Shown here: positions 3,849 through 63,384 of the stretch, one piece after another
How positions within the stretch are numbered: the first letter of the stretch is position 1
Layout: the number at the start of each line of letters is the position of its first letter
Source of the DNA: Nitrospirota bacterium
GTDB taxonomy: Bacteria; Nitrospirota; Nitrospiria; JACQBZ01
DNA: 64,000 bases
NCBI GenBank assembly: GCA_016201865.1
Contig: JACQCA010000081.1
Coordinates: 9,546 to 73,545, forward strand
Direction: 5' to 3'
The notes under the pieces: model-generated
Databases searched by the model: none
Told to the model about the DNA's origin: nothing
The model's input: only the letters and a program-made list of their open reading frames with translations
Translations under genes and position numbers: made by a program

Positions 3849-3936
3849 GGCTCACCTCCCTGTCATGAATCTATTGTAGGGAGCGGAAGGCATGGATGTC
3901 AATTTCATCCGGAGACCCGTGCGATGCGCACAAACG

Positions 3937-3975
3937 AAAGGCCCGCATTCTCTTCAGAGAATGCGGGCCTTATCT
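3937..3975 (-). terminator. Intrinsic terminator downstream of the rhodanese gene
   Basis: Perfect 16-bp arms AAGGCCCGCATTCTCT-TCAG-AGAGAATGCGGGCCTT, followed on the minus strand by a U-rich tract (TTTCGTTTG). Confidence 0.6.
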
Positions 3976-4007
3976 TGACCCGGCCGGCAAGCGCCTCTTC
4001 CAATCGA

Positions 4008-51137: not shown

Positions 51138-51153
<16 letters not shown>

Positions 51154-52421
51154 TCCCGCTTTGCTAAATATCCCGTAAAGGTCTTATCCGAAAGATTTTT
51201 ACCCAACAACTGAACCTGGACGGTCCGGCCTTTCTCGATTTCACCGGATTCCGACGGAAAAATCAGGAGGCCGTTGGCCTTGACCATGGACGTCAAAACG
51301 CCGGAGCTCTGGCTCCCTGTCGTCCAGACCTCGTATCGGTCTGCCGTCTTTTTCACCACCGCTCTCAGGAAATGCGTTTTCCCTGTTTTTTTGGTGATCC
51401 GCTCCATCAAAACCGCCTCGATCACCGGACGGAAGAGCAGGGCATGGCCTTGCATCTTTCGCAACGCGGGTCGAACGAACTGTTCAAAGGTGACCATCGT
51501 CGAAACCGGATTCCCCGGAAGTCCGAAAGCGGGTTTCGTTTTCAACATTCCGAAGGCCAACGGCTCGCCCGGTTTCATCGCGACCTTCCAGAAGGCCATG
51601 GTCGCGCCCAGTTCGTCAAGCACATCCTTCACAAAATCATATTCCCCCACCGAAACGCCGCCGGAGATGAGAATCAGGTCGGCCGACAATCCCTGGGCCA
51701 GACGATCCGAAAGCTCCTCCCGCGTATCCTTCGCAACACCCAGGAGCACCGGAACGCCCCCGGCTTCGATCACCTGAGCCGCGACCGCATAGCCGTTGCT
51801 GTTCATAATCTTGTTCGGGCCCAACGCTTCACCCAGGTCGGCCAGTTCATTGCCCGTGGCCAGAATCGCGACACGGGGCCGCTGGTAGACAAGAACATGC
51901 GATCGCCCCACCGAGGCCAGCAGGCCCACCTCCGCCGGACCGATCACGCTGTTTTGTTCCAGAACGACATTCCCAGATTGGATATCCTCACCGCGAAGAC
52001 GGACGTTTTCACCCGCCTCGACCGGTTGGATGACACGGACGCGGTTTCCCTCGGTCCGTGTATCCTCGACACGGATCACCGCATCCGCGCCTTCCGGCAC
52101 GGGCGCCCCCGTCATGATTCGGCTGGCTTGGCCCGGTTGAATCGCCTTTTGGGGAAGAACACCCGCCGCAATCTCTTCAATCACCTCCAGAAGGACGGAG
52201 CGTTGCTCCGATGCCTGAGAAAGCTCGCCATGACAAACGGCATATCCATCCATCGCGGAACTATTCCAGGGCGGATGATCGCGCACGGATGCCACCGGCT
52301 CGGCCAGCACGCGTCCCAATGAATGAAGGAGATCCATCTTTTCCGTCCCCATCCGCTGAACCTGATCAAGAATCGCTTCCAGTGCCTTTTTGACCGGAAT
52401 CATTCCCATTTTCAAACCCAT
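51138..52421 (-). CDS. moeA: Molybdopterin molybdotransferase MoeA
   Basis: Length 427 aa with the MoeA domain order; GNELADLGE and PGNPVS. Confidence 0.85.
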
Positions 52422-52561: not shown

Positions 52562-54280
52562 TTACTTACGCTGTTGCTTGGCCGCATTCGCCTTGCGAAT
52601 AATCCAGCCCTCAAGCCCAAAGGCCAAGATCAGGGCCACGAAGGGATAGACATAGGCTTTTGTCGGAATCGGCGGCTCCAGGATCGTATAGTACCAGGTT
52701 GAAATGGATGATTTCAAACCATGGTCGCCGTTGTTGCCGTCCCATGCGAAGAAAACGGTCGGGATGTATTTGCCCATCTCAAACTGGACGTCGTTTTCTT
52801 TGTCGTTGGTGGTCATGGCCCTTGTCAGGATGACGCGCCACCGGCCGTCTTTATACTCGGAAAAAACGGCTTTTACGTCTTGATTTTGATGGGCCTCCAG
52901 TTTCAGATCACCCCCCATGGCACCATGACCGGTATATGCCTTAACCGTCCCGTCCGACTCCCACTTCCAAAGGTCAATGGCGCGTTTGGCATCGCCGAAG
53001 ACGAATCGCGGTTTTTCTGGCGGCGTTAACTCTTGCCACTTGGCCGGGAACTGAACACCGACGGCATCATTGAACATCGGATATTCCCTCGAAGCAATCG
53101 GCTTTCCGGCCGGCGGAGTTTCCTCAAAACTGGCCGCCTGCGCTAACGCTTCTGGAGAGGACGCACTCTTTATCCGATCGTCCCATTCAAAGGACCAGGC
53201 GATTTCTTTGCCGTTGAAAATGGATTTCACCCAAACCTCATCCACGAGACGGACAAAGTTCCTCGGTTTGTGAATGATCTGTCCGGCCAGCCCGATATAT
53301 TGAGAATCAATCTTCTGCCAAACCGCGTCATCAGGGTTGTTGGGAATATTCCCTTCAACGAAGTGTGCCTTCACCACGAACTGCAGAGCCGGATGAGCCG
53401 TCAGAGGATCGATCTTCCGCTTGGGACAAAGCGAGATCACAAAGTTGGCCACGTCCCAACGCTGTTCGGGCGTCAGCACATCGGCAAATGACGGCATCGG
53501 TGTGCCGTTCAGTCCCGTGGAAACCTCGCGAAAAACATTTTTGGGGTTGTAAGGATCTTCGCGGTTGCCGCGGAAGTTCCAGCATTTATGCAAGTCGGCC
53601 GGAAAGATCGGGAAACCCCATTCGTCTTTCTGTGTTTTGTTTCCATCCCCTCGTCCTTCATTGCCGTGGCATTCGACGCATTTCCCTTTATTCATAAAAA
53701 CTTCTTTTCCTCGTTTAATGCTTTCTTCAGAGGAAGCGACTTGTTTCCCGAAATCAATGACATGGAATTCTTCATTTTCCATGTCTTGGAAATTCCGCTC
53801 TTTTACAAGATTGGTCATGACAAACGAGACCACTTGGTGCCGTTGCTGATCGTTCAGAACTCCGTCCCAAGGCGGCATCGCAGATCCCGGCAAACCATGC
53901 GTCACCGTCAAAAAGAGATCGTTCTCCGTCGGAAGCTCTCCGCTGCCGGTGTGACGAATCTTGAATGTCCCCTGGTTAAAATTCCTGGGGCGAGGCCAGA
54001 GGCGATCCGCACCCGGGCCGTCTCCTGCACCTTCGGGGCCGTGACACCAAACGCATTTCTTAAAGTAAATCTGCTTTCCGGCATCGATGTCGGCGGGGGA
54101 AGGCTTTGCGGGCCGGCCGGCCGATGCAGCTGCAGCCGGCTTTTCCTCTTTCTTCGTTTCGGCCATGGTCAAGACCACAGTCCCGGTTGCAATGAATGCA
54201 AACGTGACGACACCCGTCATAACCGCTCTCGTCTTGCTAAAGCCTGATAAAAGCTTGTTCATCGCTTGCGCCCCTTTCAC
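52562..54280 (-). CDS. Membrane-anchored di-haem cytochrome c with a ~270-aa C-terminal domain and a C-terminal TM helix
   Basis: N-terminal TM, two CxxCH motifs (CVWCHG, CVECHG) and a C-terminal TM. Confidence 0.7.
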   Translation of the reverse strand: MKGAQAMNKLLSGFSKTRAVMTGVVTFAFIATGTVVLTMAETKKEEKPAAAASAGRPAKPSPADIDAGKQIYFKKCVWCHGPEGAGDGPGADRLWPRPRNFNQGTFKIRHTGSGELPTENDLFLTVTHGLPGSAMPPWDGVLNDQQRHQVVSFVMTNLVKERNFQDMENEEFHVIDFGKQVASSEESIKRGKEVFMNKGKCVECHGNEGRGDGNKTQKDEWGFPIFPADLHKCWNFRGNREDPYNPKNVFREVSTGLNGTPMPSFADVLTPEQRWDVANFVISLCPKRKIDPLTAHPALQFVVKAHFVEGNIPNNPDDAVWQKIDSQYIGLAGQIIHKPRNFVRLVDEVWVKSIFNGKEIAWSFEWDDRIKSASSPEALAQAASFEETPPAGKPIASREYPMFNDAVGVQFPAKWQELTPPEKPRFVFGDAKRAIDLWKWESDGTVKAYTGHGAMGGDLKLEAHQNQDVKAVFSEYKDGRWRVILTRAMTTNDKENDVQFEMGKYIPTVFFAWDGNNGDHGLKSSISTWYYTILEPPIPTKAYVYPFVALILAFGLEGWIIRKANAAKQQRK

Positions 54281-54292
54281 GTAAACGGATGA

Positions 54293-55207
54293 TTAATCCC
54301 ATGTCCTCGGGAAGAATTCGGTATGCCAGTATTCAAACATATTAACTTTCCAGATTTCGTCCGTGGTCAGATGCTCTTCCCACGGCGGCATCGCGGACGC
54401 CCATGGAAAACCTTCCCGTGGAAGCCCCGGCCCCCCCTTTGCAATTCTCCAGAAAACGAATGTCTCCTGGAGCTGGGCAATGGTTCCCGGATCGGAGAAG
54501 TTGGCCGGAATCGGGTTGAAGGCGAATGCAAACATACCGCGGCCGTTCAGGTTGTCGCCGTGGCAGAAGTGACAGTTCTGGAAGAAAATGGAACCGCCCT
54601 CCTTCACATACAGAAGGTACCCCTTCGCATCCGGCGCAAAGGGATTCTGCTTAAAATATTTATCCTCTTTGCCCACCGGCAGGTATTCACCCTTGTCGTC
54701 CACACGATAAGGGTTTCGAGCGGTCTGCAATGTAAAGTTCTGACCCCGCACCGTGGTGGATGCCGGCGGCGCCGGATGAACCGTCCTTAACTCGATCGGC
54801 TCGTCAAACTTGGGGACATTAAAATCATACGTCCCGTACCCAATTAGCAACGGGAGAACCACGAAGGAAACGCTCCGGACGCTTTTATAGACAGGGGTGA
54901 CGGCCATGACGGTATTTAGAATCGGCCGCTTAAATTCGGACCATCCCTTCTCCGTCGAAGAAATAAACAGGAAGATCACCAAGGTGACCAGTCCCATGTA
55001 GGTGTAGAGAAGCGCGGAGGGGATCGGCGGAGTCAGCACATACTTGAAGATCGACCAAGCTCCCAGCCAGATCAGGAGGGCCTGAGGAAAGGCAGGAATC
55101 CGCTTTCCTATTTTCTGTAAAACATAGTTGATGCCGATGTAAATAAACGTCGCGATCGTCAGGATAAGCAACAGTTCAATTGGCTTATAACCTTCAATCC
55201 ACATCAT
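54293..55207 (-). CDS. Polytopic membrane protein with a C-terminal mono-haem cytochrome c domain
   Basis: Four predicted TM helices, then CHFCHG. Confidence 0.7.
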   Translation of the reverse strand: MMWIEGYKPIELLLILTIATFIYIGINYVLQKIGKRIPAFPQALLIWLGAWSIFKYVLTPPIPSALLYTYMGLVTLVIFLFISSTEKGWSEFKRPILNTVMAVTPVYKSVRSVSFVVLPLLIGYGTYDFNVPKFDEPIELRTVHPAPPASTTVRGQNFTLQTARNPYRVDDKGEYLPVGKEDKYFKQNPFAPDAKGYLLYVKEGGSIFFQNCHFCHGDNLNGRGMFAFAFNPIPANFSDPGTIAQLQETFVFWRIAKGGPGLPREGFPWASAMPPWEEHLTTDEIWKVNMFEYWHTEFFPRTWD

Positions 55208-55281: not shown

Positions 55282-56499
55282 TTACGGAGCCGAAACCGCC
55301 TTGGCAGCCCCGCCGCAAACCGTGGCAAAGTTCTCTTGAGGCGGGCCAGGCAGGTTGTCTTTCTTCGCCGTATCACAATTCTGCTGAAGCAGATAGTCGG
55401 CTATCTTCTCCAAACCTCCATAGGTAAACTTCGTGGCAAAATCCTGGATCATCGGAGAAATTAGAGGATTCGACTTCTGCGCGAATTGATGCACAATAAA
55501 CGCATTGGGATCCACGATGGATTCCATAACGTATTCTTTGGGTGTCTTGGCATGGGCCTTCCCGGCCTTCACACGCGCCTGATATTCCGCAGAAGCAATG
55601 CGCCTTGGAGCATTATAGCCCTCGATGAGCATTGGACCGATCGCGCCGAATTTTGCTAAGGCAATCCCTGGAATCTGATGGCATGCAAAGCAACCCATCT
55701 TTGCGACAATCTGATCCGGAGTGTCGGAGGCCAAGACGATCGGAGGACCGGGAGGAGCGGCGGCTTGAGTGCCAGGTACGGCGGCCTTTGGACGATCCGC
55801 TTCAGGAATAAACTTCTCATAGGCCGCACGGATCTCTTTTGGAGAAGGCGGCGTCTCCCCTTCCCGATACCACAGCCAAGTATCCACGGCAATCAGTTCT
55901 TCGATGCTTAAAGCAATCGGGGGTTTGTGAATGACCGGCATCGGGCTATCACGATCATTGGTCCCCTTAGTACCGAATCCTTCCACCACAAAACAGGCAG
56001 GACAAGCATGGGATTCGGCGATATATTCCTCAGCCGTCGTCGCACGACCGCTTCCCTTAAAAGATTCGGTCGAAACAAAATCCGCTTTGATATACTTGGG
56101 GTCTTTAATTCGCTCTGCCGCCCTTTTGCCAAGCCCAATCAGGTTCGGAGCGCGATCTCCGATATCACCTTTCTTGAAGGTATGGCAAAGAGGGCATTGA
56201 CCTTTTCCGATTCCGCGTTCCGCGAATCCACCGACCTTTCCGAAGATGATGGTTTCGCCCATCTCGGACAATTTATCTGTTGGCATCGTATCGATTGCAC
56301 CGATATCCATCTTGATAACAGGCGGCACTTCACCCCGGGTCTGAGGCAGCCAGTTTGAGTAACTGGCAAATATCCCGGTCATGACCATGTAGAAGCCGAT
56401 GGCCGTCAGGAGCCCTCGGACTCTGGGGAGATTGTACCCCAAGATGAAAAGCGCAATTGCAGAGAACAGAATGGTGACGGCTAAATACCCTTGAGTCAC
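55282..56499 (-). CDS. Membrane-anchored di-haem cytochrome c
   Basis: CPLCH and CFACH motifs. N-terminal TM pair. Confidence 0.7.
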   Translation of the reverse strand: MTQGYLAVTILFSAIALFILGYNLPRVRGLLTAIGFYMVMTGIFASYSNWLPQTRGEVPPVIKMDIGAIDTMPTDKLSEMGETIIFGKVGGFAERGIGKGQCPLCHTFKKGDIGDRAPNLIGLGKRAAERIKDPKYIKADFVSTESFKGSGRATTAEEYIAESHACPACFVVEGFGTKGTNDRDSPMPVIHKPPIALSIEELIAVDTWLWYREGETPPSPKEIRAAYEKFIPEADRPKAAVPGTQAAAPPGPPIVLASDTPDQIVAKMGCFACHQIPGIALAKFGAIGPMLIEGYNAPRRIASAEYQARVKAGKAHAKTPKEYVMESIVDPNAFIVHQFAQKSNPLISPMIQDFATKFTYGGLEKIADYLLQQNCDTAKKDNLPGPPQENFATVCGGAAKAVSAP

Positions 56500-56573: not shown

Positions 56574-58496
56574 TTACTCCGAGCCGCCGGCCATAACGGG
56601 CCGCGCGGCCTCTTTCCTTGCCTCGGCTACTGCATGCTTGGAGGTCAATTCGCCTAACCAGAAAACAAACAACACGAACAACCAGAAGGCCATCACGTTC
56701 ATGGACATCACGTTCGCCGCAAAACCGATCGTATGCGTGAATGCCCACGGCGAGTTATCCCGGAAGACCTCCATCACGTGCCAGAACAGCCGCACGGAAG
56801 ACCGGATGTATCCCATTAGAGCCATCAACCACGTGAAAGAGACCGCGAGCGCGAACAGCGCATATTGCGAGCGCACCGATATTTTCCCCCACTCGATCAG
56901 ACCGGTCAGCTTGGAACCCCTCATCATCGCGATGTTGATGGCACTGCCAATGAACAATGTCGTCAGCGTCCCAACGACCTGGGGCACGGACAATCCCACA
57001 CGCACGTTGGCTGGGATGAAATATCCATAGATGGCCAGCCACCAGTTGTTCACCAGGGCCACGGCAAACATGGCCATCAAGGCCGCGTTGCCCCACGCCT
57101 CCCATTTCACCGTAATGATTTTGTTGCTGCGCTGATACAAAAGGAAGGAAATAATCGTGGTCATGATCATGGTGTTAACGGCCCCGTTCTTGGCCGACAT
57201 CACGCCGAAGTTTCCGATCACCGGATGCTGCTGCCCACCGATCGCTTTCAACTCCGCAGGACGCATCACCAAGGTATGCGGAGTCAACCAGACGAGGAAA
57301 GCGGCCGTAGTCAGGAAGAGGATATATTTAATGTATTTCTGATACTTCTCCGCTCCTCTCATTCTTTCCATCCCATTGAACAGATAGTAATTGGTCGAGA
57401 AGAAAAGCGCGCCGATCAGCACGGCCTGGATGATGAACAACCAGGCCAACAGACCGCCCATCAGGGTAATACCCATCTGCTGTCGGAAACCGTACACTTC
57501 ACGCATCAACCAGTAACCGGCAAATGGCAATGGAATTAACGAGCCCACCGCCATGAACATCGCGATGTACCCCATCCAGTCGTAGTACGCTTTTTCTTCC
57601 ATATTCCTGGCCGCAAGGAACTTATAGGCAGCATACGCCGCCACAATCCCGCCGCCGAAGACCATGTTTCCGATAATCCGATGGACGTTTAACGGATTCC
57701 ATAAAGCATTATGAAGAACCGCCCAGATGTTTCCCAAATACCGCCCCTTTTCATCCACACCGGCCGGAGACATCATGAAGCTGGCCCATGAATTGGCGAG
57801 CATCATCAAGACGGATCCGAAGACATTCAAAAGCACCCCCATGCAGGCATGCACCCATTTCGCAAAACCATGGGCCATGCGATCCCATCCGTAATAATAA
57901 AGATAGAGCGTTCCGCTCTCTGCCAAGAAGAGCAGAGCATAGATATGCATCACCGGCCTAAAAAGGGAGGAGATGTATTTAAAGAAATCGGGGTAGAGGG
58001 TGATAAACGAGAAAAGGAGCAACCCGCCCAGGATTGCGGTGACGGAATAGGCCGTAAGACTGATCTTGACCAAGAGATGTGCAAGATCATCGTACTTCTT
58101 GGACATCACCGGATCCTTGGTCAACAAACCGACCAACTCGATGATCATGCAAAAGATCGGAACGGCCAAGACAAAACTTCCAAAATAGAGATGCTGCTGC
58201 GCGATCGACCAGATCAGGATTCGGTTTTCACTTAATGGGTAAGGAAGGTTATAGCTGGGATAATCAGTGGCTTTCAGCTCAGGAACCGGCTGGCCGGAGA
58301 CGGGGCCCTCTGTCTTAAAGTAAATATCCTTCGCCATTTCGACTTTAGGCGCAGCCTCGGTTGCGGCCTTTGTCGCCTCATCGGCCATCACGGGGGATGA
58401 GAAGAACGGCATGACCAGCGACAGCAACAACGCCGTCGCCACAGCCCCTAATGAAAGCAGGGACCATACCCGCATCCTTTTACTTATCGCCTTCAT
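56574..58496 (-). CDS. Cytochrome bd-like (CydA-homologous) putative terminal oxidase subunit
   Basis: Polytopic, 640 aa. A conserved His in TM1 (QQHLYFGSFVLAVP) matches CydA His19. No cydB is adjacent. Confidence 0.7.
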   Translation of the reverse strand: MKAISKRMRVWSLLSLGAVATALLLSLVMPFFSSPVMADEATKAATEAAPKVEMAKDIYFKTEGPVSGQPVPELKATDYPSYNLPYPLSENRILIWSIAQQHLYFGSFVLAVPIFCMIIELVGLLTKDPVMSKKYDDLAHLLVKISLTAYSVTAILGGLLLFSFITLYPDFFKYISSLFRPVMHIYALLFLAESGTLYLYYYGWDRMAHGFAKWVHACMGVLLNVFGSVLMMLANSWASFMMSPAGVDEKGRYLGNIWAVLHNALWNPLNVHRIIGNMVFGGGIVAAYAAYKFLAARNMEEKAYYDWMGYIAMFMAVGSLIPLPFAGYWLMREVYGFRQQMGITLMGGLLAWLFIIQAVLIGALFFSTNYYLFNGMERMRGAEKYQKYIKYILFLTTAAFLVWLTPHTLVMRPAELKAIGGQQHPVIGNFGVMSAKNGAVNTMIMTTIISFLLYQRSNKIITVKWEAWGNAALMAMFAVALVNNWWLAIYGYFIPANVRVGLSVPQVVGTLTTLFIGSAINIAMMRGSKLTGLIEWGKISVRSQYALFALAVSFTWLMALMGYIRSSVRLFWHVMEVFRDNSPWAFTHTIGFAANVMSMNVMAFWLFVLFVFWLGELTSKHAVAEARKEAARPVMAGGSE

Positions 58497-58599
58497 GGCT
58501 TATCTCCCTATATTTTTAAAAAATTAAAAAACTTTACCCCGGCCACCTCTTTTAGAATCAAACCTAACAGCCCTGGCCCTATTAAAAGTGCCAGTATTA

Positions 58600-58650
58600 T
58601 CGAGTCCTATGTAGCACCATAGGATGCCTTTGTCAAGCAAAAAATAAAAA
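58600..58650 (-). promoter_or_regulatory. Sigma70-like promoter (copy 1) for the bd-like oxidase gene
   Basis: Minus strand reads ATTTTTTGCTTGACAAA (-35 TTGACA), a 17-nt spacer containing the inverted repeat CCTATGgtgctaCATAGG, then TACATA. Confidence 0.45.
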
Positions 58651-58667
58651 CCGCGCTTCACAAACCT

Positions 58668-58783
58668 TAATGAAACAGGAAAAAGTAATCAAGCCCCTGT
58701 ATTTTCATAAACAACCAATCCATAGTTTGAAAATAAAACACCCAAACCACGAGCATCACCACAAAAGCAATCACCGTTTTCAT
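58668..58783 (-). CDS. 38-aa single-TM peptide
   Basis: MKTVIAFVVMLVVWVFYFQTMDWLFMKIQGLDYFFLFH. SD AAGGTGG lies 6 nt upstream. Found manually; it is below the ORF-track size cutoff. Confidence 0.4.
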
Positions 58784-58856
58784 GACCCCCACCTTTCCCA
58801 ATGAGTGGCATGGACGCTTACCATTTCACCCGGTCGATGATAACCCGGTTTATCGA

Positions 58857-58955
58857 TCAGTGATAAAGCGCCCCGAACCAATAGAAGAACCAGATCGAAA
58901 CGACGCAGACGATGACATACAAAATCGGACCGACATTCTGACGGATTTTATCCAT
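58857..58955 (-). CDS. 32-aa single-TM peptide
   Basis: MDKIRQNVGPILYVIVCVVSIWFFYWFGALYH. A perfect SD AAGGAG lies 8 nt upstream, behind a strong promoter. Confidence 0.45.
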   Translation of the reverse strand: MDKIRQNVGPILYVIVCVVSIWFFYWFGALYH

Positions 58956-58984
58956 TGCCCTCTCCTTGTAACAGCCCCCGCCCA

Positions 58985-59035
58985 ACAAGTGGTGTGATTT
59001 TAGTGAATCAGAAAAAATTTGTCAAGCAAAAAATC
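58985..59035 (-). promoter_or_regulatory. Sigma70 promoter (copy 2), TTGACA-N17-TAAAAT
   Basis: Contains the same 17-mer ATTTTTTGCTTGACAAA as copy 1, then the -10 box TAAAAT. It drives the 32-aa peptide gene. Confidence 0.55.
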
Positions 59036-59100
59036 CGGGTTCCGATTCAACGGAATTTAAGCGCTGGATTCCCCTATTTTTACCCATTTTTCTATCGCCG

Positions 59101-60012
59101 TTACACGGGCTTCGCGCAGCGAAACCCAATAGTTACATCGCGATACTCAGGATACATTTTAAAACGGATCGACGTCTGGGCGCGCTTGATCGAATCGTTC
59201 CAGGAGGCTCCCCGAATCACCCGGCTCTCTCCATCCGGAACCCCAGCAGGATTGCTCGCCGGCAACAACCGGTAGGAATCCTGGTTATACCAATCCGCAA
59301 CCCATTCCATCACATTGCCGGCGAGATCATGAACTCCATAAGGACTGACGTCCCGCGCAAATTGCCCCACCGACGCTGTATAACGCGCGCCGTCGTCGCC
59401 CAATAGATTGGCATATTCAGATCGCTCCTCATTTCCCCATGGCCATTTCCGCCGGTCCGTTCCCCGGGCGGCCTTCTCCCATTCCGCCTCGGTCGGAAGC
59501 CGTTTTCCCTTCCATTGACAATAGTCAACCGCATCGTCCCAGGACACCCCGACAATCGGATTCAAAGGCTTGATGAAGAGCGGCAGGTCTTCCGTCACGC
59601 TGCTCGAGAGATATCCCGCCAGCCGAGGTTTCCGGTGTCCGGTCAAGCCGATGAAGGCATAGAACTGCGCAAATGTAACCTCATACTTATCGATATAAAA
59701 TCCGCCTAGGGAGACCCGGCGAACCGGCTTTTGATCATGCGACCCTTCGGGGCTTCCCATGGTAAATTCGCCCGCAGGGATAAAGACCATCGCTTCGAAT
59801 TCGTCATCCACCTTGACCTGTCGCACTTCCGCCTCGGCTTTCTTGGACTCTTCCGCGACCCTCTCCAGCTTTTTGGCCAAGGGGGTGTATCCCTTATCCG
59901 AGGTCTGCACCTCCACCGCGGGAGGTCCCGGTTCCTGGCGGATACCGACTTGGATGATGGCCAGAATGATGAAAACCAGCGACAGGTAAATGGCAATCAG
60001 ATATTTGCTCAT
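59101..60012 (-). CDS. Formylglycine-generating-enzyme (FGE-sulfatase) family protein, membrane-anchored
   Basis: N-terminal TM. WKGKRLPTEAEWEKAARG...WPWGNE...RGASWND. Confidence 0.8.
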   Translation of the reverse strand: MSKYLIAIYLSLVFIILAIIQVGIRQEPGPPAVEVQTSDKGYTPLAKKLERVAEESKKAEAEVRQVKVDDEFEAMVFIPAGEFTMGSPEGSHDQKPVRRVSLGGFYIDKYEVTFAQFYAFIGLTGHRKPRLAGYLSSSVTEDLPLFIKPLNPIVGVSWDDAVDYCQWKGKRLPTEAEWEKAARGTDRRKWPWGNEERSEYANLLGDDGARYTASVGQFARDVSPYGVHDLAGNVMEWVADWYNQDSYRLLPASNPAGVPDGESRVIRGASWNDSIKRAQTSIRFKMYPEYRDVTIGFRCAKPV

Positions 60013-60238: not shown

Positions 60239-60445
60239 TCACCGTCGTCGGCCCGTCACCGCCGGTTTCGGCTCGCCGATACCGACCTCGCCGTTCGAAC
60301 CTGTGCGGGACGGCCATGCCGCCATCTCGGATTGTTTTTGACGGCTGACTCTTGACCGGTACAACATCTGACCGATAAAGAGACCGGCCATGAACACGGC
60401 CCCCGTATAGAACAGGATATAGACGGCGTAGAAAAAATGTTTCAA
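60239..60445 (-). CDS. Small membrane protein with a YTGAVF motif
   Basis: MKHFFYAVYILFYTGAVFMAGLFIGQ plus a basic tail. Confidence 0.5.
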   Translation of the reverse strand: MKHFFYAVYILFYTGAVFMAGLFIGQMLYRSRVSRQKQSEMAAWPSRTGSNGEVGIGEPKPAVTGRRR

Positions 60446-60509
60446 CGGTTCACCTCCTCAACGCCCACAGCCCCACTCCTTGCCGCTCTGAACAGGGAGC
60501 GGGACGGGA

Positions 60510-60797
60510 TCAACCTTTTCTCAAGGTTAGTTCATCCGATTCACGGAATTCCGTTATTTCACCGGACGCGACCGGGGGATCTCCATCGTCCGCAGAGCGG
60601 GATGCAAGACGCCTTTCCATCCTTTCCCCAAGGTACACACCGAGCATAAAAACCGCACCGGTATAGACCAAAACATAGAGGGCGTACAACTGCACGACCA
60701 GCATGCCGGCCAGAAAAACGGCCCCCGTATAGAGGGCGATGGAGAGCAGTGAAAAAGCACGACGCATCGTCAAACAACCTTTCTCGGCGCGTTGCAT
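60510..60797 (-). CDS. Small membrane protein with two YTGAVF repeats
   Basis: SIALYTGAVFLAGMLVVQLYALYVLVYTGAVFMLGVYLGE. Confidence 0.5.
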   Translation of the reverse strand: MQRAEKGCLTMRRAFSLLSIALYTGAVFLAGMLVVQLYALYVLVYTGAVFMLGVYLGERMERRLASRSADDGDPPVASGEITEFRESDELTLRKG

Positions 60798-60815
60798 GAA
60801 TCGTTCACCGGGTGA

Positions 60816-60935
60816 TTAAGCCCCTCGACGTTCCTCCCACGCGCGTTCGAGCTTCTCTCCAACATACATCCCTGCCGCAAACACAGCGGCGGTGTAGATA
60901 GAAACGGAAAGGGCGTAAAAAAAGAAATGGACCAT
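60816..60935 (-). CDS. 39-aa membrane peptide, YTAAVF variant
   Basis: MVHFFFYALSVSIYTAAVFAAGMYVGEKLERAWEERRGA. Found manually. Confidence 0.4.
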   Translation of the reverse strand: MVHFFFYALSVSIYTAAVFAAGMYVGEKLERAWEERRGA

Positions 60936-61273
60936 CTAAGACACCCCTGCCAGGCGGATTTATTATATAAAGTTCATCACGGACGTGTCAAGCCTAACAG
61001 CCGGACCGGGTTTTCGACCGTAGGAATCACGCAACAAAAACCGCTTGACTTCTTCAACGTTTTTGTTAGAATGGCGGACACGAAGGCGAAGCCATGGACA
61101 GCCCGGAACAGAGAAAGCGAAACACGCCCACCTTTGATTTCATCGTGCTGCTCGGCATGGTGGCCAATCTGATCCTGGCCGTCTTCCTGATTCTTTATTA
61201 TTTCGGTCTTTTCTAATCGACAGATCTTCACGCATTCTCCATCACGATTCCGCCATGTCTCCGCTGAACAACC

Positions 61274-62191
61274 CTAATCGGATTTCGTCTCCGGTTCGGT
61301 GGAATCATCCTTGGCGCAGCGAAACCCGATCACCGCACTGGTCTGATGCCGGGCGGCCGCAAATCGTTTGGCCGCTCTCGCATTAACCGAAGATTCGTTC
61401 CAGGATCCTCCGCGGTAGATCCGAAATTTTCCCGTCTCGGGTCCCTTTGGAATTTTAAAAGGCGCGTTTTTATAATAATCCGGATCATACCAATCGGCGA
61501 CCCACTCCGCCGCATTCCCCGCCATGTCATATAATCCATAGGGGCTCCGTCCCGACTCAAATTGCCCCGGCGGAGCTAAAAATTTATAGCCGTCCTCTTC
61601 ACCTCTTAAATTGGCCGCCTTTGCGAGGAAATCGTTCCCCCAGGGCCAGCGGTAGCCCTGCTCTCCTCCGGCCGCTTTCTCCCATTCGGCTTCGGTCGGC
61701 AGCCGCTTCCCGGCCCATTGACAATACTCCCTCGCCGCATCCCATGATACCCCGACGACCGGCAAATCGGGTTTGGTGATCAGGGATAGCTCTTCTTGAA
61801 AGACGGGGACCACGGGCATCGGATACCTCGTCGCCGCCGAAAATTGAGAAAATTGGGCCTGGGTCGCCTCTTTAAGATCGATATAAAAAGCCGGCAGGTA
61901 GACCGCATGCTGAGGCATCTCATCCAAATCCCCGGCGCTGGGCAGGCTGCCCATCTGAAAAGGTCCCTCCGGGATCAATACCATCTCTCCGCCGTCTTCG
62001 TCCTTGATCGTTTTGAAGCGGCTGAAATCGCGCTTGCGGCTCTGTCCCTCTTGAATCGGCTCTCCTTTCATGCTCCGGGCCTTGGAGGCCAGTCGGCTGG
62101 ATTTCCAGGCATCATAAATAAAAAAGACGATCATGAGAAAAAAGGCGATGAATGTGATGAGCGTGCCGTAGTACAGCGTATCTTTCTTCAT
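61274..62191 (-). CDS. Formylglycine-generating-enzyme (FGE-sulfatase) family protein, membrane-anchored; paralogue
   Basis: WAGKRLPTEAEWEKAAGG...WPWGND...RGGSWNES. Confidence 0.8.
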   Translation of the reverse strand: MKKDTLYYGTLITFIAFFLMIVFFIYDAWKSSRLASKARSMKGEPIQEGQSRKRDFSRFKTIKDEDGGEMVLIPEGPFQMGSLPSAGDLDEMPQHAVYLPAFYIDLKEATQAQFSQFSAATRYPMPVVPVFQEELSLITKPDLPVVGVSWDAAREYCQWAGKRLPTEAEWEKAAGGEQGYRWPWGNDFLAKAANLRGEEDGYKFLAPPGQFESGRSPYGLYDMAGNAAEWVADWYDPDYYKNAPFKIPKGPETGKFRIYRGGSWNESSVNARAAKRFAAARHQTSAVIGFRCAKDDSTEPETKSD

Positions 62192-62364: not shown

Positions 62365-63384
62365 ATGCGCTCCTGGGATCGGCGAAAGTTTCTGAAGATT
62401 TCCGGACTCGGCGTTCTCATGACCCTGGCGACGAGCCGGGTCCAAGGAGCGATGTATTTCCTGAAGACATTCTTATCGCTCCCGTCCCGCCAAACCGCTC
62501 CGATAACACCCAACCCCGAATTCTATGTTTATGACATGGGCCGCATGTCAAAAATGATCCGGGATCTGGATTATTCCCGATGGACGTTGAATCTCACAGG
62601 CCTCGTGAAGAATCCCCTCGCTTTAACGCATGACGCACTGAAGCGACGGCCTTCCCGCGAAGCCGCCGTGACATTGGAATGCATCGAAAATCCGGTGGGC
62701 GGCGATACGATCAGCAATGCGATCTGGCGAGGGGTTTCGCTCAACGATCTTCTCGTCGAAGCCGGAGCGGACCCGTCGGCAAAGAAAGCGGTTCTCAAAG
62801 CAGCGGACGGATACAGCGATAGTATTCCGCTCAAGCGGGCGATGGACGGCGATGTTCTGCTGGCCTATGAAATGAACGGGGTTCCCCTCCCGCGAGAACA
62901 CGGGTATCCCTTGAGGGCCGTCGTCCCCGGAATTTACGGAATGAAGAATGTGAAATGGATCATGGAGATCGAAGTGACGACGGCCGACTATCGAGGGTAT
63001 TGGCAACAGCGCGGGTGGTCCGATGAGGCCGTGATTGGAATCATGTCCCGGATCGACAGCCCCGGGGCCTATCAGGAATTGATCGGTTTGCACCAACCGA
63101 TTCGCGGAATTGCCTTTGCCGGATCGTCCGGCATCCGACAGGTCGAGGTCAGCACCGATGGCGGGCGCACGTGGAGTCCATCTCAAATAGATTCCCCTTT
63201 ATCCCCTTACACGTGGGTATTCTGGCGATTGGACTGGCAGGTTCCCCGGGCCGGGGTCTATCGTATCGTTGTCCGCGCCACCGATCGCTCCGGCCGTCTC
63301 CAGACGGCGGAATACACCCGAGGATTCCCGAACGGGGCAACCGGACTTCATACCGTCATGGTTGAGGTGGTCTCGGCAAAATGA
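62365..63384 (+). CDS. Sulfite-oxidase-family molybdopterin oxidoreductase, TAT-exported
   Basis: Twin-arginine signal DRRKFLKISGLGVLMTLATS. Moco-binding domain plus a dimerisation domain. Length 339 aa. Confidence 0.8.
   Translation: MRSWDRRKFLKISGLGVLMTLATSRVQGAMYFLKTFLSLPSRQTAPITPNPEFYVYDMGRMSKMIRDLDYSRWTLNLTGLVKNPLALTHDALKRRPSREAAVTLECIENPVGGDTISNAIWRGVSLNDLLVEAGADPSAKKAVLKAADGYSDSIPLKRAMDGDVLLAYEMNGVPLPREHGYPLRAVVPGIYGMKNVKWIMEIEVTTADYRGYWQQRGWSDEAVIGIMSRIDSPGAYQELIGLHQPIRGIAFAGSSGIRQVEVSTDGGRTWSPSQIDSPLSPYTWVFWRLDWQVPRAGVYRIVVRATDRSGRLQTAEYTRGFPNGATGLHTVMVEVVSAK

Follow-up and report, generated by a model that had tools for sequence, protein, structure and literature searches.

Comparative analysis of a 64,000-nucleotide stretch of a Nitrospirota genome (contig JACQCA010000081.1 of assembly GCA_016201865.1; hereafter the window) indicated that two small open reading frames (ORFs) lying in tandem ahead of a cytochrome bd-like oxidase gene, termed mini-ORF A and mini-ORF B, are genuine, strongly conserved, oxidase-linked membrane-protein genes. 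They represent two families for which a description elsewhere seems to be lacking. An identical 17-mer is present twice in the same region, once in a putative promoter ahead of A (P1, holding copy 2) and once in a promoter-like element between B and the oxidase gene (P2, holding copy 1). Taken as a whole, we regard as fairly probable an explanation in which an operon is driven by P1, the products of A and B are accessory or assembly partners of the oxidase, and P2 serves as an additional promoter.

The conservation of the two mini-ORFs was examined in 80 loci encoding relatives of the oxidase together with the window (81 loci), which yielded 7,943 ORFs of 20-90 amino acids (aa) on both strands. 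Jackhmmer detected A in 23 loci (E 1e-8 to 1e-22) and B in 35 loci (E 5e-9 to 1e-20), and every match was located on the oxidase strand, immediately 5' of the oxidase gene, in the order A-B-oxidase. An earlier interpretation made from the letters of this DNA alone (the sequence-only reading) had pointed to the strong Shine-Dalgarno sequences of both mini-ORFs, AAGGAG and AAGGTGG, which are present as described, and had asked for conservation in orthologous loci, which the fixed order in 23 and 35 loci provides. Nearly all homologous loci (23 for A) showed an ATG with a Shine-Dalgarno sequence 5-8 nucleotides (nt) ahead. The window and its three closest relatives were compared by codon position and by the ratio of nonsynonymous to synonymous substitution rates (dN/dS). 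The dN/dS values were 0.035-0.098 for A and about 0.045 for B, with dS ranging from about 0.4 to saturation, and the variable columns at the first, second and third codon positions numbered 5/3/18 for A (18 of 26 at the third position) and 6/3/24 for B (24 of 33). The A-B and B-oxidase spacers were hardly alignable and rich in indels. In Manganitrophaceae and Troglogloeales jackhmmer found B alone; a divergent A-like ORF was located directly 5' of B in these lineages (e.g. MDQQQGVKLGKIVFLITLVFCSWAIWYISAPPPGFGH), and hhalign matched such ORFs to family A with a probability of 88% and an E-value of 3e-6.

Profile searches of 5.8 billion proteins, in which the first alignment rows were longer in-frame ORFs, yielded 457 A clusters and 155 B clusters; almost all of these were unnamed or labelled 'hypothetical protein', and none had a Pfam domain. 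The names FliO, YidC/Oxa1, YccT and DUF106 carried by some homologues (P0007, P0039, P0150, P0151, P0167, P0211, P0054, P0073) are almost certainly hydrophobic-helix artefacts. The exact A and B sequences were not found in a collection of 15 billion proteins, indicating that the two genes were not called in the public annotation of this genome. The claim that the peptides are unannotated thus holds for this genome, but not for the homologues elsewhere, which had already been called as hypothetical proteins. The peptide ends ...WFFYWFAGIQCPC and ...DMQGLDYWYLFRK would be useful targets for detecting A and B.

The linkage to the oxidase was also found in the reverse direction. When the exact-protein genomic context of six A or B homologues from different subfamilies was looked up, all six were located directly upstream of a Cyt_bd_oxida_I gene followed by cytochrome c genes, and in four of these loci the end of the locus showed an EB_dh gene. 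The order of the downstream genes was identical in all A/B-bearing loci reaching far enough downstream. The window oxidase is 65% identical to a Nitrospira protein with A and B upstream, and the synteny in canonical Nitrospira (CydA-like, DUF3047, 125-aa gene, FGE-like, FGE-like, A, B, CydA-like, cytochrome c, cytochrome c, alt-NxrC) is the arrangement of the window. The idea that canonical Nitrospira lacks A and B proved to be wrong, as the loci concerned hold a paralogue and the true syntenic locus has both genes. This stand-alone oxidase paralogue is 78% identical to the A/B-linked copy of the same genome and has no A, B or cytochrome partners. One example (L021, 3851-9648; Nitrospira sp. 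DJ, CP058931, 366-376 kb) lies directly upstream of a gene for a 1150-aa molybdopterin oxidoreductase (NxrA-like). The features of the window discussed here are listed in Table 1.

Table 1. Location of the mini-ORFs, the promoter-like elements and the neighbouring genes in the window
Feature	Position	Strand	Remarks
Putative operon promoter P1	58997..59034	-	T-tract, TTGACA (59025-59020), 17-nt spacer, TAAAAT (59002-58997); holds 17-mer copy 2
Shine-Dalgarno sequence of mini-ORF A	58962..58967	-	AAGGAG, 6 nt ahead of ATG
Mini-ORF A, 32 aa	58857..58955	-	MDKIRQNVGPILYVIVCVVSIWFFYWFGALYH; predicted single helix, basic N-terminus, C-terminal His
Shine-Dalgarno sequence of mini-ORF B	58789..58795	-	AAGGTGG
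Mini-ORF B, 38 aa	58667..58783	-	MKTVIAFVVMLVVWVFYFQTMDWLFMKIQGLDYFFLFH; predicted single helix and short tail; D22, Q29, L31 invariant
Promoter-like element P2	58608..58645	-	17-mer copy 1, TTGACA (58636-58631), 17-nt spacer, TACATA (58613-58608)
Oxidase assigned to the OR-N-type cytochrome bd-like (CydA-like) proteins, 640 aa	56574..58496	-	Pfam Cyt_bd_oxida_I
Cytochrome c	55282-56499	-	Pfam
Cytochrome c	54293-55207	-	Pfam
Dihaem cytochrome c fused to EB_dh haem-b domain, 'alt-NxrC'-like	52562-54280	-	Pfam
FGE-sulfatase-like gene, directly upstream of P1	59101..60012	-	Pfam 1e-58; kept upstream of A in Nitrospirota loci

The gene downstream of the mini-ORFs had been taken for a bd-like oxidase in the sequence-only reading, which was borne out here, and its assignment to the OR-N-type CydA-like proteins is supported by its domain match and gene context. 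The Pfam profile Cyt_bd_oxida_I (2e-15) matched residues 98-335 only, corresponding to profile positions 9-238 of 418. The match covers the N-terminal haem-binding core of CydA, while the region of the quinol-binding Q-loop was unmatched by Pfam, as judged by coverage only. No cydB accompanied the lone CydA-like gene in the window cluster, and no solved relative of the oxidase was detectable by sequence. In the public record the protein is MBI3611167.1, 'cytochrome ubiquinol oxidase subunit I', from a groundwater Nitrospirota metagenome-assembled genome (MAG). The OR-N family is that of Murali, Gennis and Hemp (10.1101/2021.01.16.426971; PMC12342949), and the window operon contains alternative electron donors, namely cytochromes c and an NxrC-like haem-b protein. 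A cluster of bd-like oxidase, mono-/dihaem cytochrome c and alt-NxrC is known from Nitrospira, Nitrospina and Kuenenia (Lucker 2013, PMC3578206; Mundinger 2019, PMC6606698), and the window oxidase with its downstream genes is alike in order and domains. The two small upstream genes go unmentioned in the papers searched on bd-like/alt-NxrC clusters, and the word 'small' is absent from the text of the Murali preprint (10.1101/2021.01.16.426971). By gene order and sizes only, the window cluster corresponds to bd-like_3/alt_NxrC_2 of N. moscoviensis (NITMOv2_3640-3643), the genes of which have transcript ranks of 17th to 39th (PMC6606698). The RefSeq tags of N. moscoviensis jump from RS16745 to RS16755, and only one tag lies between the two.

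The 17-mer TTTGTCAAGCAAAAAAT is located at 58629-58645 and 59018-59034 on the plus strand, the two copies being separated by 389 bp, as the sequence-only reading had noticed. These were the only two sites in the 64 kb with up to two mismatches tolerated, for an expectation of 0.01, and none of 100 shuffled sequences reached at least two matches. A looser pattern consisting of a T-tract and CTTGACAAA recovered the same two sites and no others in the window. On the minus (coding) strand the 17-mer reads ATTTTTTGCTTGACAAA and supplies a TTGACA -35 box in both copies, also as proposed. The layout is ATTTTTTGCTTGACAAA-N14-TAAAAT before mini-ORF A and ATTTTTTGCTTGACAAA-N14-TACATA between mini-ORF B and the oxidase gene.

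The upstream element P1 agrees with the consensus at 11 of 12 positions with a 17-nt spacer and was called by the promoter scan, and the distance from the start of its -35 box to the ATG of A is 70 nt. In the related loci L001-L003 the -35 box was invariant and the -10 box was TAAAAT, TAAGAT or TAGAAT. Most other A-bearing loci had a TTGACA-17/18-TATAAT sequence matching at 11-12 of 12 positions 5' of A, and positions orthologous to P1 matched at 10-12 of 12 in most clades. The distance between promoter and ATG of A was 81-85 nt in the sister clade and about 170-186 nt in Nitrospiraceae, and in most lineages A, B and the oxidase gene are located behind this single upstream promoter. These comparisons of motif and position lend good support to the prediction that P1 is a strong, near-consensus sigma-70 promoter kept across clades, in agreement with the promoter first proposed for copy 2. 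The P1 spacer was also inspected by eye for half-sites arranged as for FNR or CRP, and this reading was rejected because the spacing does not fit.

The downstream element P2 has a -35 box matching at 6 of 6 positions, a 17-nt spacer, and a -10 box, TACATA, preceded by TGC. A CCTATG/CATAGG inverted repeat (58623-58618 and 58611-58606) is located in the spacer and overlaps the -10 box. From the start of this second TTGACA to the oxidase ATG there are 140 nt, with a ribosome-binding site GGGAG near the end. Across the window's clade the -10 box was TACATA, TATCTA or TAGATA, giving a geometry of -35 box, 17-nt spacer and TGC-TA(c/t/g)(a/c)TA. In the B-oxidase spacer, the only invariant runs of at least 5 nt in the window, L001 and L003 were TTTTT, CTTGACAAA, TGGTGCTA and the Shine-Dalgarno sequence AGGGAGAT, and TGGTGCTA was located 9 nt beyond CTTGACAAA with a spacing fixed in all three. 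L002, the closest Hainich MAG, stood outside the copy-1 comparison, because a run of N at about 3900-3990 masks all of the copy-1 region together with the 3' end of B; mini-ORF B of L002 looks truncated for the same reason. As the motifs of copy 1 were the sole invariant islands in a spacer expected to be saturated at neutral sites, copy 1 is, by this comparison, under selection in the window's clade. The element was confined to that clade, where the B-oxidase spacer measures 159-224 nt; in other clades the spacer measures 9-182 nt, and a TTGACA-type promoter was not detected there.

That copy 1 is a promoter, with an extended (TGn) but weak -10 box, is plausible but unproven. Two points weigh against this part of the explanation: P2 was missed by the promoter scan that called P1, and its -10 box agrees with the consensus at just 3 of 6 positions, with A instead of T as the final base. 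Copy 1 might instead be an operator, might act at the RNA level within one long transcript, or might be what is left of a local duplication or gene conversion of P1; we consider such alternatives possible but doubtful. The weak -10 variants, the inverted repeat overlying the -10 box in the window and the lack of the element in other clades speak for such alternatives, and a second block shared behind both copies, GGGC..GGGCTGTTA, hints at duplication or conversion. Neither the repeat nor the block is well kept, however: the inverted repeat was conserved only in part, and the second block was not conserved in L001-L003. Moreover, CTTGACAAA, the T-tract and TGGTGCTA are invariant at the 9-nt spacing in three synonymous-saturated genomes, which fits a -35 box and an extended -10 box. 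Of the original proposal of a promoter with an inverted repeat before the oxidase gene, the motif and the repeat were found; the poor -10 box and the restriction to one clade call for correction, leaving a plausible internal promoter.

The second shared block reads GGGCCAGGGCTGTTA and GGGCGGGGGCTGTTA on the minus strand (58565-58579 and 58969-58983, at +49 and +34 nt, respectively), and its score was equalled by 0.75% of shuffles. Since this block lies behind both copies and is unconserved between genomes, the perfect 17/17 identity of the 17-mers may reflect local duplication or gene conversion plus promoter constraint. Such an event between the two promoter regions, recent and in the window lineage, is suggested by the data; in L001 and L003 the two copies of the 17-mer diverge from one another at a few positions. 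The sequence-only reading had also taken the shared element to suggest co-regulation. The downstream copy is plausible as an internal promoter but is not evidence of a regulon, and no third copy was present in the 64 kb covered. The sole further CTTGACA-N16-18-TANNNT site in the window is located at 60992..60962, and the pattern TTTTTNCTTGACAAA would serve as a genome-wide query for the P1/P2 architecture.

Based on the family alignments, AlphaFold2 predicted A as one helix spanning residues 2-31 (predicted local distance difference test score (pLDDT) 86) and B as a helix spanning residues 2-29 with a short tail behind it (pLDDT 95), in line with the single-transmembrane peptides originally proposed. 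Both N-termini are basic (MDKIRQN in A and MK in B), so that by the positive-inside rule the peptides are expected to adopt an N-in, C-out topology. G9, F23 and W26 of A, within a WFFYWF motif, were invariant in the first 22-sequence alignment. Among the 120 best clusters, about 95 had an A peptide ending in QCPC, NCPC or PCPC (Nitrospiraceae type), and a terminal His was present in the window's clade (58857-58862 in the window), the sister clade and Manganitrophus; the A-like peptides of Troglogloeales ended in ..TPP, with neither His nor Cys. The invariant residues D22, Q29 and L31 of B lie in the pattern D-x6-QGL or QNLPFPY. In A-less lineages several B peptides ended in ..GEGH, ..AEAH or ..GGH; B has an extra tail there that closes with His, as in ..ELFPSGEGH, ..APEGH, ..SAEAH and ..GKGGH (L071, L077, L080; P0078, P0091, P0120). 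The C-terminal CPC or His of the A family (P0121-P0240) has the look of a ligand at the predicted periplasmic end, and a conserved interaction on the periplasmic face, possibly metal or haem ligation, is a matter of speculation.

In the mechanism we propose, P1 would most likely transcribe A, B, the oxidase gene, the two cytochrome c genes and the alt-NxrC gene as the head of a respiratory operon. A and B would each be translated from a separate Shine-Dalgarno site to give single-pass membrane helices, with their basic N-termini probably facing the cytoplasm and their conserved C-termini the periplasm. The products are most likely accessory subunits or assembly/stabilising partners of the bd-like oxidase/cytochrome c complex, analogous to, and not homologous with, CydX, CydS and CcoQ, and copy 1 probably provides the oxidase and cytochrome genes with additional transcription or with transcription of their own. 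The role of A and B as accessory subunits is the best-supported mechanism and fairly probable. Several results have to be set against this proposal. Exhaustive HMMER searching of 1.84 billion representatives yielded 110 B clusters, and since all were 35-96 aa long, B was never fused to a larger protein among them; a fusion would have proved the association. Neither A nor B matched a Pfam family at E<=0.01 or any known family of small oxidase subunits. In Nitrospinaceae the oxidase, cytochrome c, cytochrome c and alt-NxrC genes are kept and A and B were not found, and in the Nitrospinaceae locus L043 the 367-bp hisD-oxidase spacer contained no hydrophobic ORF. A and B are therefore not universally required; in these comparisons they accompany the complete complex in Nitrospirota and in some MAGs labelled Nitrospinota.

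That Nitrospinaceae manage without the pair is also a point in favour of the main competing interpretation, in which A and B are not stoichiometric subunits but transient factors for assembly, cofactor insertion or regulation, for example delivering metal or haem via the His or CPC of A. The frequent QCPC, NCPC or PCPC ends of A, the His that closes A in the clade of the window and in its sisters, and the conserved FGE-like gene pair adjoining the cluster would suit this role, the FGE family being copper-dependent. The ..TPP ends of the A-like peptides in Troglogloeales speak against it, and nothing in the data separates a transient factor from a stable subunit; we judge this interpretation to be unlikely. 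Still less probable, and a long shot in our estimate, is that the two peptides are paired, hitherto unrecognised micro-subunits that carry ligands in the OR-N bd-like complex, with the periplasmic His/CPC of A and the invariant Asp/Gln of B helping to bind a metal such as copper, or haem, on the periplasmic face. The His-ended B peptides of A-less lineages would fit a shared ligand requirement, and cytochrome b559, which is built by single-helix peptides, offers a likeness. If true, ligand-bearing A and B could explain how a bd-type core works with cytochrome c donors.

As A and B occupy the 5' portion of the operon, ahead of the main gene, they could also be regulatory leader peptides (upstream ORFs), the act of translation rather than the product controlling the oxidase. 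This is very unlikely, because purifying selection acts strongly on the amino-acid sequence across phyla, the entire transmembrane helix included, and because the interval between B and the oxidase start ranges from 9 to 224 nt. Nor was any supporting RNA structure found: an Rfam scan of 58300-59300 returned no family, RNAalifold gave no covariation-backed structure in the B-oxidase spacer (covariation term -0.02), and no terminator or attenuator structure was detected between mini-ORF B and the oxidase gene. The view that the ORFs are chance frames, or hydrophobic peptides of the type-I-toxin kind with no relation to the oxidase, is brought to mind by the frequency of short hydrophobic ORFs in intergenic DNA and by the missing calls in the public annotation; it is effectively refuted by conservation, namely by the profile E-values, the fixed order, dN/dS values far under 1, hundreds of database clusters and a CydA-like neighbour wherever checked.

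The surroundings of the cluster showed further features. A pair of FGE-like genes is kept directly upstream of A in Nitrospirota, and a sulfite-oxidase-type molybdoenzyme and moeA flank the window cluster (59101-60012, 61274-62191, 62365-63384, 51138-52421), with moeA following the alt-NxrC-like gene. Three small hydrophobic ORFs are located between both FGE-like genes on the minus strand (60239-60992): one of 39 aa (60816-60935), one of 95 aa with two tandem units (60510-60797) and one of 68 aa (60239-60445). They are mutually paralogous, share the motif YA.Y..YTGAVF.AG...G(Q/E), and are preceded by CTTGACA-N18-TATAAT at 60992..60962. Their identity was 60-89% in L001-L003 and their conservation weak in L004-L010; in canonical Nitrospira the FGE-like genes are adjacent without these ORFs.

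The bd-like oxidases have been proposed as a terminal oxidase or a route of reverse electron flow in nitrite and manganese oxidisers, and the window cluster belongs to a relative of nitrite oxidisers. The composition of a bd-like complex has never been determined biochemically, and no structure was detectable by sequence search. Two extra membrane subunits, if present, would change the expression, purification and modelling of bd-like complexes, and heterologous expression without A and B may fail, as that of bd-I does without CydX. Annotation pipelines should call A and B. The consensus promoter P1 offers a well-defined starting point for studies of expression; taken alone, the promoter finding is ordinary.

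Finally, A and B were compared with the known small subunits of respiratory oxidases. None of 22 A-family and 27 B-family members matched CydX (PF08173) at E<=1, and NCBIfam was also without a match. Searches with the A and B profiles against all Protein Data Bank (PDB) chains of at least 20 aa (hmmsearch) gave only chance matches to transmembrane helices (E>=0.24). Matches to SecE, DUF6341, DltX and FixP_N (the last in 2 of 22 members at E 0.012) were hydrophobic-helix noise and not homology. Membership of A and B in the CydX, CydS or CcoQ families was thus rejected, as no profile or PDB match was obtained, and the likeness is by analogy only. The sequence-only reading had proposed CydX-analogous accessory subunits; the oxidase linkage and the single helix stood, a CydX type by sequence did not, and with no Pfam, NCBIfam or PDB match and a position upstream of a CydA-like gene, the term accessory subunit is inferred from synteny only.

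CydX (YbgT/YccB) of E. coli cytochrome bd-I is the presumed stabiliser of the CydA-type subunit, as summarised in 10.1101/2021.01.16.426971. Like A (32 aa) and B (38 aa), it is a single-pass peptide of 30-40 aa encoded in the operon of a bd-family oxidase. CydX is, however, a single peptide typically encoded after cydB, whereas two peptides are encoded here upstream of a lone CydA-like gene. These go with an OR-N enzyme that lacks CydB and a quinol site, and their sequences are unrelated to that of CydX. CydS of the Geobacillus bd oxidase and CydH/CydY of E. coli bd-I are lineage-specific single-helix subunits packed against CydA in solved structures; A and B share this single-helix build without sequence similarity of their profiles to CydS or CydH. 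Small single-pass subunits are also found in cytochrome-c-dependent terminal oxidases, namely CcoQ/FixQ in cbb3 oxidases and subunit IIa in ba3 oxidase. These belong to an unrelated enzyme superfamily and have no sequence match to A or B, but the A/B operon resembles them in that it also encodes cytochromes c, the likely electron donors.

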